Source: Paraburkholderia phenoliruptrix (GTDB lineage Bacteria; Pseudomonadota; Gammaproteobacteria; Burkholderiales; Burkholderiaceae). From it: a stretch of 24,000 nucleotides of DNA. This document shows positions 5,318 to 11,653 of the stretch, one piece after another. Every line of letters starts with the position of its first letter. Positions within the stretch are counted from its first letter, which is position 1. The notes beneath the pieces were generated by a model, which was given only the letters and a program-made list of their open reading frames with translations, made no database searches and was not told the DNA's origin. Location: contig NZ_CADIKB010000032.1 in assembly GCF_902859825.1 (NCBI RefSeq), forward strand, positions 2,026 through 26,025, written 5' to 3'. A program made the position numbers and the translations under genes.

Positions 5318-5869
5318 TCACTGTTTTGAACCATCGTTTGACGCGACGAGATCTCGATTCGCCAGTTCAAGCTTCAGTGGCGCATCGGCGGAAAGCGTCT
5401 TCTTCGCAATCACACGTCGCCATTCAGTGCCGGCACCGGGATCGCGATAGAACGCGACGATCGCGATGTATTGCGTGTCCGGCTGTATCGGCTGCGACAG
5501 GCTCGCGGCCGCGCCCGGGTTCACGACCGTGGCGAGGCTCGCCTGCAGGTCCTGCGCCAGCACGGTTTTGTCGTTCTTGAGCAGATCGTCGTAGGACGCC
5601 GCGTCAAAGAGCTTGCGGTCCTTGAGTTGATACACACGTACGGCAACCGAGGTCGACCGGTCGGCGTCGTCCGGGTTAAGGGAGGCGCGAGCCGTCAGGT
5701 CAACGTTCAGCGTCTTGACCTGTTTGTAGAAGACGGCTTGGTATGCGCTCGAGGTGCCGTCAGAGACAGCCTGCCAGGCGCCGCAGGCGGAAAGCAGCAG
5801 GCTGGACGCGAGGGTGGCCATGGCGGCCCGGTTGGCGCGGGTCGGGCGGCTGGGTATGAAGCTGGGCAT
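5318..5869 (-). CDS. tssJ: T6SS outer-membrane lipoprotein TssJ (VasD/SciN family)
   Basis: Start MPSFIPSRPTRANRAAMATLASSLLLSACG (lipobox LSAC), with GGAGA upstream. TssJ-like core: LNPDDADRSTSVAVRVYQLKDRKLFDAASYDDLL...YIAIVAFYRDP. It lies directly downstream of tssG. Confidence 0.8.
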   Translation of the reverse strand: MPSFIPSRPTRANRAAMATLASSLLLSACGAWQAVSDGTSSAYQAVFYKQVKTLNVDLTARASLNPDDADRSTSVAVRVYQLKDRKLFDAASYDDLLKNDKTVLAQDLQASLATVVNPGAAASLSQPIQPDTQYIAIVAFYRDPGAGTEWRRVIAKKTLSADAPLKLELANRDLVASNDGSKQ

Positions 5870-5882
5870 GAATTCTCCGGAA

Positions 5883-7004
5883 TCAGGCAACGCGTGCGGC
5901 AAGGTACGGGTTCGGCGCGGGTGCCGGAAACGCTTCGTAGCTGCCGAGTTCAATCGTGATCAGACGCTCGTCGTCCGACGGCAACACCGTGGTCCAGGCG
6001 AGGCGCGGCAGCGAACCGCTCAATGCTGAAGTCATTGTCGGTGGCGGCACCAGCCGCGACGACAGTTCCATGCGCAGGAACACATCGGCCTTCGTGCCGA
6101 CATACAGGCGCAGGAACGCCATCAACTCCCGGTGCACCGGTGCGCCGGGCAACAGGTCGTGAGCCTGTGCGGCGCTCGCTGGCCGCACCGTCACCCGCGC
6201 CGCTCGGCTACGGTACGCGACGCGTGTACCCAGCACGTAGCCGGCACCAAGTGTCCCGGGGCTCACTCCGCCACCTTCCCGCGGCCGGTCGTTCCCCGGT
6301 GCGCCCGAACTGAGTACATAAGGTTTGCCCGCAGCCTTGAAGGTCGGGTGAAATTCGTCGACACGCACCTCGACGCCCGGCACCGCCAGCGCGACGACGC
6401 CAGCGAGCCCCTCGGGCGTGCGCGTGCGCTGGATCAGCAAGCCGAGCAGCGCGAGCACGCGTGAATCGGGCAGCCCGGCTCGCGCGGGCTTTTCGCCCCA
6501 GCCGAAACCCGCGAGGCAGAGCAGCTTGCGCGAGTGTTCGTCGGTCGCGCCCGGGCGGAATCCGATCGGGTAGCGGTATTTCTTCCACGCTCGGTACAGC
6601 AGCGTCACGTACCGGTGATTGAACTGGTCAAGAAACGCTTCGACCGCCTCGTGCCCCTCCTCCCGCAGCACGATATCGTCGATCATGTAGGACGGCACCG
6701 CAGCGTCGACGCCATACAGGCCCATGAACGTCGTGTGCACGGCAGGCGGTGCGTCGGGCCGCTCCGGGTCAAACCCGACCGAGGCGATTTCACCGGCCGG
6801 AAAACCTGTACGCGGCCGAGCACGGAACCGCACGGCTTCATGTTCAGGCGTGTCGCGTGTGCCAAAGCCCGGGTGGTCCGGCACGCGAACCTCCAGAAGC
6901 TGGCATAGCTGCATGAAGCTCATGGTCGGCGCGCGCTCAAGCAGCGATCTCACGAGCGGGTCGAGATTAACCGTGGCCTGATCCGGCAGATCACGTACCT
7001 TCAT
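5883..7004 (-). CDS. tssG: T6SS baseplate subunit TssG (ImpH/VasB family)
   Basis: The N-terminal FMQLCQLLE motif, family-like length and position after tssF support the call. The ATG at 7004 overlaps the tssF TGA (ATGA). An alternative upstream ATG lies at 7037. Confidence 0.85.
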   Translation of the reverse strand: MKVRDLPDQATVNLDPLVRSLLERAPTMSFMQLCQLLEVRVPDHPGFGTRDTPEHEAVRFRARPRTGFPAGEIASVGFDPERPDAPPAVHTTFMGLYGVDAAVPSYMIDDIVLREEGHEAVEAFLDQFNHRYVTLLYRAWKKYRYPIGFRPGATDEHSRKLLCLAGFGWGEKPARAGLPDSRVLALLGLLIQRTRTPEGLAGVVALAVPGVEVRVDEFHPTFKAAGKPYVLSSGAPGNDRPREGGGVSPGTLGAGYVLGTRVAYRSRAARVTVRPASAAQAHDLLPGAPVHRELMAFLRLYVGTKADVFLRMELSSRLVPPPTMTSALSGSLPRLAWTTVLPSDDERLITIELGSYEAFPAPAPNPYLAARVA

Positions 7005-8048
7005 AGCGGGGAACGCAGTGCCTTGCTGCGCGGCCATTCGGTGCGGGACTGTGATGGCAGGCTGACGATCGCGAGTTTCGTGAACAGGTTGATCTCGGCG
7101 TAGAGCGCAAAAAAGCGGTGCAGGAGTTCACCGAACAGCATCACGTCGCCTTCTCCCGCGAATGCGTGAGCGTCGAGCGTCACTTCGATCAGCACTCCCC
7201 GTTCGACCGAGCCGCCCGACACCTCTTCAAGCAGTTCCTCCGAGACGTGCAGGATGCCCGCGAGGCGGCGACGGTTCAGCTCGTCGTTGGTCCAGTCATA
7301 GAGCGCCAGTGCGCCGCGCAATACTTCCGCATCCATCATCGACAGGAAGTTCGGCGCGAGGTGCGAGAGCACGCGCCACTGGAAGCGGTCTCCGGTTGGC
7401 GGATACAGCGGCAACGTCGGCGCGGCGAGATTGCGCACGCCTGCCACGTTCGGCGTGCTCGCGGCAAGTTCGTTGATACTCGCCTCGCGCAACCCCTTGC
7501 GCGGCAGCATGCCGTTCGTGCCTGTCACACGCAGCGACAGGCTTTCCTCCGGCAGGTCCTGCATCGTCTCCCATGCGTGGCCACCGAGGATTACCCAGGT
7601 CTCGTGCAGGCCGGTGGCACCGGGGCGCACCCGCGAGTGAAAGTACCGCTCTGGCGCTTCGTGGCGCATCATGCCGCCGCGATGGCGGAAGGTGGCGAAC
7701 GGTACGTATTCATAGCGCTCCGCCGTTTCGTGATCGAACGACTCGATCGCGTCGACCGAGTAGGTTTCGACGTGTTCACCCTGGTGGCCCGCCGGCACGA
7801 CCCGGTATTCCGTCTCGTGGTGATTAACCGGGATCGTCTCGGCATCCAGCGTGAACAGGTTGATCACCGGCGTGCAGAAGAGGCGCACGTTCTCTGCCGT
7901 AAAGCGCTGGTCGGACGGATAGCTGTGCTTTAGCAGGATCTCCAGCTCGAAGCTGAACGCGTTCGCAGGCAGTTTCGCAATGTCCAGTCCGCACAGGTCA
8001 ATGAACAGGAATTTTTCACGAAAAGAAAAATATTCGAGTAATAGCTGG
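7001..8048 (-). pseudogene. tssF: tssF (ImpG/VasA) C-terminal fragment; N-terminal roughly 40 percent missing
   Basis: TssF-like sequence starts at (Y)QLLLEYFSFREKFLFIDLCGLD and runs to the stop at 7001, about 349 codons. My recollection is that intact TssF proteins are about 600 aa. The 47 codons upstream in the ORF (to 8203) are simply the antisense of hcp. Confidence 0.8.
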
Positions 8049-8324
8049 TACCTGTACAAGGCGGTCACGAGCGGCCAGACGCTCAAGTCGATCGAGATCA
8101 AGTGGTACAAGATCGACGACGCCGGCAAGGAAAAGGAATACTTCAACACGAAGCTCGACAACGTCAAGATCGTGGGTGTCACGCCGAAGATGCACGACAT
8201 CAAGAATCCCGCTTACGAGAAGCACAACCATCTCGAAGAGATCGAACTGCGCTACGAGAAGATTACCTGGTCGTACAAGGACGGCAACATCATTCACGCC
8301 GACAGCTGGAATGAGCGCTCGTAA
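8049..8324 (+). pseudogene. hcp: hcp/tssD C-terminal fragment; about 65-70 N-terminal codons missing
   Basis: YLYKAVTSGQTLKSIEIKWYKIDDAGKEKEYFNTKLDNVKIVGVTPKMHDIKNPAYEKHNHLEEIELRYEKITWSYKDGNIIHADSWNERS matches the C-terminal half of about 160-aa Hcp proteins that I recall. The upstream in-frame codons are the antisense of tssF. Confidence 0.8.
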
Positions 8325-8402
8325 AAATTTGTAAGAAGCAGGCCTCGGAAAGCCGGCACTGGCCCAACCGACTCCCCGTCAGTTGTGTGCCGGCATTCTT
8401 TT

Positions 8403-8433
8403 CGCCAGTTCACCCTGTGGACTGGCGTTTTTT
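8403..8433 (+). terminator. Rho-independent terminator after hcp
   Basis: CGCCAGT (8403-8409) pairs with ACTGGCG (8421-8427) across an 11-nt loop, followed by TTTTTT (8428-8433). Confidence 0.6.
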
Positions 8434-8481
8434 GTTGCCGGCGGACCCTCTCTCTGCCGCGCCCCAGGACCGGGTACCCAC

Positions 8482-11211
8482 ATGACGATGCGCGACACCA
8501 CACATCTGCTCCGCAAGCTCAATCCGCATTGCGCGAGCGCGCTCGAAGCCGCCGCGAATCTCTGTAACGCGCGCCTTGCCGATGAAATCACCGTCGAGCA
8601 CTGGCTGCTCAAGCTGATCGAGGCGGGCGACGGGGACATTCCCGCGATCCTGCGCCGCTACGAAATCGACATCAACGGCGTGTGGGACGCGCTGCTCGCG
8701 GCAATCGACCGCACGCCCCGCAATCTGCGTGGCAAACCATCGCTTTCCCGGTCACTCGCACATGTACTCGAAAACGCCTGGCTCCATGCATCAGCCGGTG
8801 AGTCCGCGCAGCCGATCCGCTCCGCGAACCTGTTGCAGGCGATTGTCGATGCGCCGCATGTGCTGCGCGCGACAGACGCCTGGCCGTTGCTGTCCATAAG
8901 TTCCACACAGGTCCAGCGGCTACTGCGTGACCTCGACCGTCAATCGGCTGAGGGGGCACGGCAGGACGTGAGGGAAGCAGCGGACAGCAAAGCGCCCGGA
9001 TCACCGGGCACTGTCACGGCGACAGACGATGAGGCGCAACGGAAGGTGTCGCCCTCGCCCGGGATCAGCTCTGGTACGGATGGTGACGCCCTCGGGCGCT
9101 TTGCCATCGACCTGACTGAAAAGGCCGCGCGCGGCGATATCGACCCGGTATTCGGTCGCGATCGCGAAATCCAGCAGATGGTCGACGTGCTCGCGCGGCG
9201 ACGGAAGAACAATCCGATTCTTGTCGGCGAACCGGGCGTCGGCAAGACCGCGCTGGTCGAGGGACTCGCGCTTCGTGTGGCCGAAGGCAGCGTACCGAAT
9301 GTCATCCGTGACGTGCGCATTCTCACGCTCGATCTCGGCCTGCTTCAGGCAGGCGCGGGTGTAAAAGGCGAATTCGAGCAGCGCCTGAAAAACGTGATTG
9401 ACGAAGTGCAGGCCTCGCCGGTGCCGATCCTGCTTTTCATCGACGAAGCCCACACGCTGATCGGTGCAGGTAACGCCGCCGGCGGCGCCGACGCGGCGAA
9501 CCTGCTCAAACCCGCGCTCGCGCGTGGCGAGCTGCGCACGATCGCGGCGACCACGTGGTCTGAGTACAAGGAATACTTCGAGCGCGATGCCGCGCTTGAG
9601 CGGCGCTTCCAGATCATCAAGGTCGAAGAGCCGGACGACGATGCGGCCTGCCTGATGCTGCGGGGACTGGCCAGCCGTTATGCGAAACACCACAACGTCC
9701 ATATCCGCGGCGAAGCGATTACCGCCGCCGTGAAACTCTCACGTCGCTATATCCCGGCGCGACAGCTACCGGACAAGGCTGTTGATCTGATCGACACGGC
9801 CGCCGCTCGTGTGCGTATGGGACTCGAATCGCCGCCGCCAGAACTGCAACGTGCAGCCGCGACGGTGACCGCGCTGGAACTGGAGCTTGCCACACTCGAT
9901 TCTGATCAGCAGGTTGGTGTGCCGGGGCTGGCAGGTGAGCGTGAGACACTGAACGAGGCACTGGCCTCGGCGAGAGCGGAAAGCGAGCGGTTGCAGCAAC
10001 GCTACACGCGCGAACTGGAACTGGTCAGTGGGTTGCTTGCCCACCGGGACGCCGGCAGCGACGGCGCAACGCTCGAGGCGGCGCAGCGTAACCTGTCGGA
10101 TGCGCAGGGCAAGACGCCGCTGATATTCGCCGACGTGGACGCGCAGGCAATCGCGCGAGTCGTGTCCGAATGGACGGGTGTGCCCGTCGGCAATCTGGTC
10201 GAAGACGAACTGCGCAGTCTGCTCGCGATCGAACAGGGACTGGCGAAACGCGTGGTGGCACAGGACGATGCGCTCGCCGCACTCGCGGAAAGCTTACGCA
10301 CCGCCAAGGCAGGCCTGAAAAGCGAGCACACGCCGTTGGGTGTTTTTCTGCTCGCCGGGCCGTCTGGCGTTGGCAAGACGGAAACCGCGCTGGCACTTGC
10401 CGATCTCCTGTTCGGTGGCGAATCCGCACTGACCGTGATCAACATGTCGGAATACCAGGAGGCGCACACGGTCTCGCAACTGAAGGGTTCTCCTCCCGGC
10501 TATGTTGGCTATGGCAAAGGCGGTGTGCTAACCGAGGCCGTGCGGCAACGGCCGTACAGCGTTGTCCTGCTCGACGAAGTGGAAAAGGCGCACCGCGACG
10601 TGCTCGACCTCTTCTATCAGGTATTCGACCGCGGTGCGATGCGGGACGGCGAGGGCCGCGAGATCGATTTCCGCAACTGCGTGATCCTGATGACCTCCAA
10701 CCTGGGCAGCGCACAGATCGACGAGGCGACGGCAGAGAATCCGGCGATCTCGCAGGATGAGCTGCTTGAGGCGATCCGTCCGGAACTCGTGGCCCACTTC
10801 CAGCCCGCGCTGCTGGCCCGTTTCCAGACGCTCGTGTACCGGCCGCTGGAAGCACCGGCGCTCGAATCCATCGTGAAGCTGAAGATCGACAAGGTGGTCG
10901 AACGACTTCGCCGGCAGCACAACGTGGCGCTGACGTGCGACGAGGCGCTGACAGTATCACTCGCGCAACTGTGTCTCGCGCGAGAATCCGGCGCGCGCAA
11001 CGTTGACGCGTTCCTGAACCAGCGAATTCTGCCGGCGGTGTCGCGCGAGCTGCTCGCACGGATGGCCGAGGGACTCGCGCCCGCGGAGATCCGGCTGTCA
11101 ATGTCAGATGAGGGCAATCTCACGATCGATTTTGTTGATCGCGCCGACGACGAACACGATGCGACGGTCACGCTTTACAGCCACGCTCCTGCCACAGAAA
11201 CGTCGATGTGA
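8482..11211 (+). CDS. tssH: T6SS AAA+ ATPase ClpV/TssH
   Basis: It has a Clp N-domain-like start ([16 protein letters not shown]). Two AAA+ modules are present: GEPGVGKT with [10 protein letters not shown], and GPSGVGKTE with [11 protein letters not shown]. The start is at ATG 8482 or 8488; the ORF-track N-terminal extension looks non-coding. Confidence 0.9.
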
Positions 11212-11221
11212 GGTCAATGCG

Positions 11222-11653
11222 ATGCCCACCGGCCCCTCCCTCTACGACATGCTGCTCGGCCATATCGACGGCGAGCCGCTCGAAGCGCACGACGATAAAA
11301 CGCTCGAGATTCTCAGCGTGCAGGCAAATATCCGGCGCATTCTGAACGCGCGCGCCGGAGCGCTGAAGCACGTGCCCGACTTTGGGCTACCTGATCTCAC
11401 CGATGTGTACAGGAATCTTCCCGCCTCCGTTCACGACCTCAGGAACCAGATGGAGGCGACCCTGCTGAAGTTCGAGCCACGTATCCGGTCTATCGATGTC
11501 GAGATCGACGACAGGCCCGACCCCGGCCTGCTGGTCAGCTTCTGGATGACCTGTCACCTCAAAAAGGCCGGGCTCGTACGTTTCGGGACCTATTTCGAGC
11601 CGCAAGGACGTATGCGCGTGGAGCGGGTGCAGCCGCCCAAGCCGGGCCAGTGA
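11222..11653 (+). CDS. tssE: T6SS baseplate subunit TssE (gp25-like)
   Basis: MPTGPSLYDMLLGH...IRRILNARAGALKHVPDFGLPDLTD is a typical TssE/gp25 N-terminal region. It is 143 aa and starts 11 nt after the clpV stop. Confidence 0.85.
   Translation: MPTGPSLYDMLLGHIDGEPLEAHDDKTLEILSVQANIRRILNARAGALKHVPDFGLPDLTDVYRNLPASVHDLRNQMEATLLKFEPRIRSIDVEIDDRPDPGLLVSFWMTCHLKKAGLVRFGTYFEPQGRMRVERVQPPKPGQ

Follow-up and report, generated by a model that had tools for sequence, protein, structure and literature searches.

A base-exact deletion scar in a type VI secretion locus of Paraburkholderia, and the case for its recurrence

A stretch of 24,000 nucleotides from Paraburkholderia phenoliruptrix (NCBI RefSeq assembly GCF_902859825.1, contig NZ_CADIKB010000032.1, positions 2,026 to 26,025 of the forward strand; called the window throughout) carries the remains of a type VI secretion system (T6SS) cluster, in which the 3' parts of two divergent genes, tssF and hcp, meet head to head. 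The point where they meet marks a base-exact deletion, about 20-23 kb long, in which the core of the cluster was lost. Other species of the genus carry the same junction, on backgrounds that alternate in gene trees with intact ones, and its end points are also found rejoined to other partners. On balance, and taken jointly with the explanation developed below, we favor reading the scar as the product of a recurrent, sequence-specific deletion at a hot spot. Head-to-head T6SS deletion scars as such are already known from Burkholderia cenocepacia, and the unexpected feature here would be the recurrence at sequence-specific break points.

Deletion of the cluster core

Two long open reading frames (ORFs) cross the junction, at 7001..8203 on the minus strand and 7980..8324 on the plus strand. 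An earlier note on this DNA, made from its letters, had proposed that TssF-like sequence on the minus strand and Hcp-like sequence on the plus strand begin abruptly and meet within a few bases, and both Pfam coverage and base-level alignment bear this out. Aligned to the TssF and Hcp profile hidden Markov models (HMMs), the two fragments give partial rather than full-length coverage: the minus-strand ORF reaches only positions 250-605 of the 608 in the Pfam TssF profile (PF05947, E=3.5e-93), for which intact relatives encode proteins of 604-608 amino acids (aa), and the plus-strand ORF reaches only positions 57-129 of the 129 in the Pfam Hcp profile (PF05638). The tssF remnant, tssF' (7001..8050, minus strand), consists of the 3' 349 codons only (approximately TssF residues 256-608); it aligns with intact Paraburkholderia TssF over 349 gap-free residues at 82-94% amino acid identity, and with residues 240-580 of the solved E. 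coli TssF (6GIY_A). The hcp remnant, hcp' (8049..8324, plus strand), consists of the 3' 91 codons and the stop, beginning at residue 71 of a 161-aa intact Hcp such as that of the related genome G004, and so encodes residues 71-161 rather than a complete beta-barrel of about 160 aa. Neither remnant has a start of its own.

Base-level alignment with the intact tssF and hcp of genomes G004 and G009 and of the strain's own paralogues places the break at 8049..8050, where a TA is common to both sides: the tssF side reads ...CTGGTA, the hcp side reads TACCTG..., and the product reads GGTACC. The three-way alignment is matched by the same position in 19 other species. Microhomology at the junction amounts to 2-3 nt (TA, or GTA in some backgrounds). 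Beyond this point each long ORF is an antisense translation of the opposite gene, as had also been suggested. The spurious N-terminal extension of the 400-aa ORF (8051..8203, minus strand) is the antisense of hcp', which stays open in 12 of 20 species and meets stops in the other 8, and that of the 114-aa ORF (7980..8048, plus strand) is the antisense of tssF', with a TGA immediately before the first Hcp codon in 7 species. Profile coverage and base-level break points together thus uphold the proposal of a rearrangement scar between two divergent, 5'-truncated T6SS genes.

Some BLAST matches of intact tssF overrun the junction by ~15 nt, because in window 8030-8064 the antisense of hcp codons 71-76 agrees with codons ~250-255 of intact tssF at 11-12 of 18 bases; that this resemblance lies exactly at the break is probably a coincidence. 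An AT-rich patch at 8000-8050 represents the normal coding of a TssF motif, and a foreign origin for it was ruled out because intact genes encode the motif likewise.

The two break points are separated by 20.2 kb in the intact G004 cluster and by 21-23 kb in other intact relatives. The G004 interval holds, on its first side, the 5' part of tssF, tssA, tssM, a PAAR gene, several unassigned genes, a gene for a LysM protein, vgrG, tssC, and tssB, and, on the divergent side, tssK, tssL, an OmpA-type tagL, and the 5' part of hcp. The deletion took the first ~255 codons of tssF and the first 70 codons of hcp along with the genes between them, an effector region included, and the divergent promoter region is also gone. 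Of the 13 core genes of a T6SS (tssA-tssM), the locus retains only tssJ, tssG, tssF', hcp', clpV, and tssE, and the deletion leaves this cluster dead.

The earlier note had allowed for either a deletion between divergent genes or one end of an inversion, and had expected two T6SS components to be inactivated. The first alternative stands and the second does not. The P. phenoliruptrix genome, a draft of 129 contigs with a marker-gene completeness of 100%, encodes three TssF and three Hcp proteins of full length in addition to the fragments, and whole-genome HMM searches found no isolated N-terminal TssF or Hcp pieces in it. Because separate N-terminal halves are absent from this genome and intact relatives hold 20-23 kb between the same two points, the junction is a deletion and not an inversion. 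Inactivation likewise applies to this cluster and to this one only, as three further clusters with intact tssF remain in the cell, one of them a close paralogue, and three other hcp genes are intact as well. In so fragmented a draft, where a paralogous intact cluster is itself split between two contigs, one might suspect that an inversion or translocation ends at the junction and has carried the missing halves to another place in the genome, or that the junction is an artefact of assembly, but we give this almost no credence. The HMM searches of a complete gene complement speak against a displaced half, a de Bruijn misjoin is impossible from an overlap of 2-3 nt, and misassembly is excluded because the same junction is present in independent closed genomes and in independent metagenome assemblies.

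The paralogous cluster just mentioned is of the same T6SS type and lies on contigs C38 (48.9-51 kb) and C58 (7.3-11 kb) of the strain's own genome (G000), with tssF and hcp at full length. Compared with the window copies, its tssF is 78% and its hcp 86% identical in DNA, and its tssF groups with the deleted allele of a different species (G098) and not with the window copy. Gene conversion from this paralogue was ruled out on these identities, and because the two copies are not sisters in the trees.

Recurrence and reused break points

The genus was surveyed in 213 genomes, one per species, with Paraburkholderia delimited by the names on homologous proteins. In 19 of the 212 genomes besides our own, the 581-bp junction region of the window is colinear at 76-87% identity, and in all 19 the junction falls at the identical base. 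A degenerate pattern spanning the junction matched Paraburkholderia records only, in a scan of one genome from each of 185,579 species, and no plasmid-borne copies of the scar were found in PLSDB. The scar is present as well in JGI, ENA, and Logan contigs, including soil metagenomes. Six of the deleted species carry a second T6SS type, with TssF identity of only 59% and tssF DNA identity of 65-70%; this second type has intact members that are 91-94% identical in Paraburkholderia and Burkholderia and about 85% identical in Cupriavidus. Literature searches found no published account of this junction or of a recurrent, base-exact T6SS deletion. Proteins read across the scar in JGI, ENA, Logan, and NCBI data have either 399 aa, with an antisense-hcp leader, or 346-355 aa. 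For the window, public pipelines call a 399-aa 'TssF/ImpG' (7001-8200, minus strand) whose first 50 residues are the antisense of hcp', as well as a 44-aa ORF for the hcp remnant, and such artefacts propagate in protein databases.

In maximum-likelihood trees of the 3' parts of tssF (37 sequences) and of hcp, deleted alleles are sister to intact ones throughout, with support of up to 100%. Read as trees of a recombining locus, these would require at least 11 separate deleted lineages, the second T6SS type included. Intact alleles are the nearest neighbors of deleted ones even in the 150 nt beside the junction, and species-specific synonymous variants occur as close as 9-12 nt from it. The strongest single case is a JGI metagenome contig with the scar (L085), one flank of which matches the intact G009 cluster at 1196 of 1196 positions and the other at 1505 of 1506, G009 being a genome whose TssF is labelled P. 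phenazinium by its source. Another lineage, 98-99.8% identical throughout, holds three alleles, namely an intact one (L087), the hcp-type scar (G049, L088, L118, and L119), and a different scar (L086), and the intact allele is nested among the deleted ones. These patterns point to deletion events that were independent and recent. A base-exact junction reproduced on independent backgrounds, as found here, is one mark of site-specific recombination; random illegitimate deletion would give end points unique to each event, whereas these end points recur in about 20 species and also turn up with other partners.

The reuse takes four forms. First, tssF-Tyr256 is joined to the 3' 61 codons of tssL in L086 (a contig of ENA ERZ27237537, junction at 737/738), the two points lying 21.6 kb apart in intact G121; L086 is 99.8% identical to intact L087, which appears to come from the same ENA assembly series. 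Second, tssF-Tyr256 is joined to clpV at SE/YQEAH (the slash marks the break) in L113/L114 (GCA_003121405.1, QBUY01000003.1, ~2461), which leaves a 233-aa C-terminal fragment of ClpV. Third, the same clpV site is joined to tssF at ETE/YRVV (residue ~341) in two species (L017, G021:C23, and L018, G002:C46, at 1500/1501), where the junction reads CTGG/TACC. Fourth, hcp-Tyr71 stands head to head with the last ~300 codons of tssM, at GDRWV/PAQG, in L061 (G083:C345:12000-18500, ~1174), where the junction reads ...CAGGTA/CCCGCGCAGG and the downstream tssA and tssF are intact. On the sense strand of whichever gene is retained, the breaks read TA/CCAG in tssF at Y256, TA/CCGN in tssF at Y341, TA/CCTG in hcp, and TA/CCAG or TA/TCAG in clpV, with GTN/CCCG in tssM and a tssL site that lacks TA; most of the rejoined products read GGTACC. 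In an intact cluster, TACC is found on the sense strand only 26 times over the 17.8 kb of the left operon and 6 times over the 5.1 kb of the right one (about one per 700-850 nt). That 4-5 of the 6 distinct sites fall exactly on TACC, and that one pair is used repeatedly, is far beyond chance.

The main rival explanation is that one old deletion allele, having arisen once or a few times, persists as a polymorphism and moves between Paraburkholderia lineages by homologous recombination, while conspecific intact alleles overwrite its flanks up to the homology boundary, so that the flanks look native and undecayed. Population genetics recognizes an asymmetry in transformation, by which a short donor fragment deletes an insertion more readily than it introduces one, and a deletion would accordingly be easier to import than a 20-kb insertion. 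The scar resembles other recombination-spread deletion alleles in that one deletion allele occurs across many related lineages with recombined flanks; tssF' of the window is itself a mosaic, with G067 and G114 as its nearest neighbors over the first 150 nt, G093 when the first 300 nt are taken, G139 across the middle, and G085 (7.6%) over the final third. The pattern scan confines the scar to one genus, sister pairs and some small clades have it in common, single lineages hold intact alongside deleted alleles, and neither repeats nor recombination machinery were found that would explain a deterministic event. Two of these points also count directly against recurrence: sister species and small clades in which every member has the scar fit inheritance as well as independent origin, and mosaic flanks show that recombination is frequent, which could mimic recurrence if conversion tracts reach the boundary of heterology. 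Spread by recombination, however, needs homology on both sides, and this fails between the two T6SS lineages at 59% TssF identity, their tssF DNA being too divergent for homologous exchange on that side. The deleted alleles share no haplotype even at 10-150 nt from the junction, L085 matches a single intact strain at 99.9-100% on both flanks, and the reuse of the tssF, hcp, and clpV break points by the four other junction types goes unexplained. We regard a single old allele as rather unlikely.

A candidate mechanism

Recurrent deletion at preferred points could be produced by a sequence-specific activity that cuts and rejoins DNA. In the shared junction the breaks fall at the TA inside 5'-TACC-3', a Tyr codon followed by C; the motif points one way in tssF (Tyr ~256) and the other way in hcp (Tyr71), and rejoining gives GG-TA-CC. 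Six places behave as preferred points of breakage or rejoining: tssF-Y256, hcp-Y71, a further tssF site, and single sites in clpV, tssM, and tssL. This geometry is what one would expect if DNA were cut with a stagger at TA and then rejoined, as ends left after a palindromic TA could be joined whatever the orientation of the genes, with no base gained or lost. Serine recombinases and some nucleases work in this manner, and the candidate enzyme would be a recombinase or nuclease whose core is a palindromic TA of 2 nt. Going further, and only tentatively, we suggest that such an enzyme of Paraburkholderia, with a TA core and preferring TACC, may repeatedly and precisely excise T6SS cores, acting as a high-rate, irreversible OFF switch for a costly weapon and generating T6SS-minus subpopulations in soil.

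Several results weigh against such an activity. Neither direct or inverted repeats longer than 1-5 nt nor dyad symmetry were found above chance at the break sites, and the arms of the sites share no similarity beyond TA/CC(W)G. No recombinase domain is among the Pfam hits of the intact G004 cluster, a result that does not extend to host-encoded factors, which were not searched for. A scan of metagenome contigs for the reciprocal (circle) junction returned two unrelated chance matches, though absence from assemblies is weak evidence. The tssF site varies synonymously (CTGGTA, TTGATA, and CTGATA), the tssL partner has no TA, and the tssM partner reads GTN/CC. Finally, a KpnI-like restriction-modification system finds no sign in the genome, where GGTACC is not avoided (504 observed and 541 expected). 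Cleavage at EcoRII/Dcm sites (CCWGG) by a neighboring restriction-modification cassette of EcoRII type was considered separately and ruled out, the sites reading CCAGC and CCTGT.

Known systems share some of these features. T6SS loci of B. cenocepacia carry head-to-head deletion scars, with tssI fused to a divergent tssF at BCAL2503 of strain J2315, and include a truncated cluster without tssL-tssD (PMC6612558). Both there and here the deletion is internal to a T6SS locus and leaves 5'-truncated genes head to head, whose products are presumed to be non-functional (PMC6612558); unlike those scars, which were described in single strains, the present one occurs in ~20 species and two T6SS lineages, with its break points reused. 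Microhomology-mediated illegitimate deletion (by RecA-independent end joining or replication slippage) is similar in its microhomology of 1-5 nt and in the lack of long repeats or inserted bases, but its end points are essentially random, whereas here one pair recurs and 4-5 of 6 break sites lie at TA/CC. Serine recombinases excise DNA conservatively with a 2-bp crossover core, and the skin/sigK and nifD elements are excised developmentally. As in those cases, tens of kilobases are here removed repeatably and to the exact base, with a 2-nt core in common, and a palindromic TA core would let sites in opposite orientation yield a deletion. Unlike them, the present case shows no recombinase gene, att-like arms, or circle junction in the G004 cluster and the metagenome contigs, and excision destroys genes where developmental excision restores one.

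Surviving genes and implications

The fragments left by the deletion show little decay. The 349 codons of tssF' are free of gaps and stops in 18 of 19 species, at 59-92% amino acid identity, and hcp' is intact in 19 of 19 other species. Pairwise ratios of nonsynonymous to synonymous substitution rates (dN/dS) are 0.04-0.10 for close pairs and about 0.05 overall, like those between intact genes, and are equally low in the first 60 codons beside the junction, with values of 0.03-0.10 up to the junction itself. Private nonsynonymous and synonymous differences, counted against the two nearest relatives, number 137/741 in deleted tips and 144/589 in intact tips, showing no relaxation. The species representatives included no close deleted relative of the window from which a clean post-deletion dN/dS could be taken. 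Signs of decay are visible in the few alleles that seem older (G144 and G193), the private nonsynonymous/synonymous count of G193 being 34/43. The deleted allele of G144 (L028, G144:C1) has a gap of 32 residues or a change of frame after tssF' codon 91, and is the only deleted tssF' with visible damage.

The earlier note had held that both fragments lack a start, a ribosome-binding site, and a promoter, and this is confirmed by the absence of any ATG, GTG, or TTG conserved at or after the junction across the species with the scar, and of any predicted sigma-70-like promoter in window 7600-8700. Besides the TGA that precedes hcp', a stop lies two codons upstream in the tssF frame in 4 species and nine codons upstream in 4 more. 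From these features of the reading frames, tssF' and hcp' are most likely not translated. The same note had taken relatives in which the shorter proteins are conserved, expressed and functional as evidence that would refute its reading; conservation was indeed found in the sequences, as open frames and low dN/dS, but the lack of usable start codons argues that it stems from the young age of each deletion and not from function. Conservation without translatability implies that the constraint acted while the genes were intact, and a constraint that predates the deletion implies in turn that each deleted allele is young or that its flanks are continually replaced from intact alleles.

Alternatively, the truncated genes could be functional and under purifying selection, in which case a C-terminal TssF protein and half of an Hcp would cooperate with tssG, tssJ, clpV, and tssE or serve the other T6SSs of the cell. 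The open frames, the low dN/dS up to the junction, and the unrelaxed tips are all consistent with this, the neighboring tssJ, tssG, clpV, and tssE are intact in the window, and gene callers predict proteins of 346-399 aa. We consider it improbable, however. There is no conserved start codon and no promoter-like site (7600-8700), and stops lie immediately before hcp' in 7 species and two codons before tssF' in 4. Given the established fold of Hcp, residues 71-161 form half of a beta-barrel, which is not a folding unit. The proposed partners vary, with clpV missing in G104, truncated in L114, and itself the junction partner in G021 and G002. Decay in seemingly older alleles (G144 and G193) also runs counter to such selection, which would leave the interleaving of intact and deleted alleles unexplained.

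The rest of the remnant block lies on either side of the junction and is flanked by unrelated DNA that differs between species. Its left end, placed by comparison with 11 other loci, is the lipoprotein gene tssJ (5318..5953, minus strand; Pfam T6SS-SciN, E=6e-29), whose true start is probably internal to this ORF, as JGI calls a protein of 183 aa on an identical metagenome contig (L084). It is followed by a full-length tssG (5883..7037, minus strand), which covers positions 3-303 of the 304 in the Pfam TssG profile (E=1e-71). Between hcp' and clpV, on the plus strand, a terminator-like hairpin with a T-run (8403..8427) has 11 pairs and then TTTTTTGTTG; so strong a hairpin implies a separate downstream promoter for clpV-tssE, and a simple promoter scan predicted none. 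The clpV gene (tssH; 8482..11211, plus strand) is apparently intact, with 909 aa from the ATG at 8482, Pfam matches to Clp_N, AAA, AAA_lid_9, AAA_2, and ClpB_D2-small, and a JGI call of the same 909 aa on L084. The presence of clpV varies in this T6SS type, the gene being absent between hcp and tssE both in deleted L067 (G104:C3) and in intact L026 (G004:C22). The right end of the block, set by the same comparison of loci, is the gp25-like gene tssE (11222..11653, plus strand; Pfam GPW_gp25), called at 143 aa on L084.

For annotation, the 346-399-aa 'TssF' and 44-114-aa 'Hcp' proteins of Paraburkholderia genomes and metagenomes are artefacts of the scar and should be flagged as pseudogenes. 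For biology, T6SS clusters are generally assumed to be lost by slow, random decay. If the deletion is recurrent, the loss of this weapon in soil bacteria would be a frequent and mechanistically channelled event, which would bear on the dynamics of cheaters and co-operators and on strain typing, and would point to an uncharacterised DNA-rearranging activity. If instead one allele has spread, the scar would clearly illustrate, in nature, how a deletion allele can sweep from one species to another.

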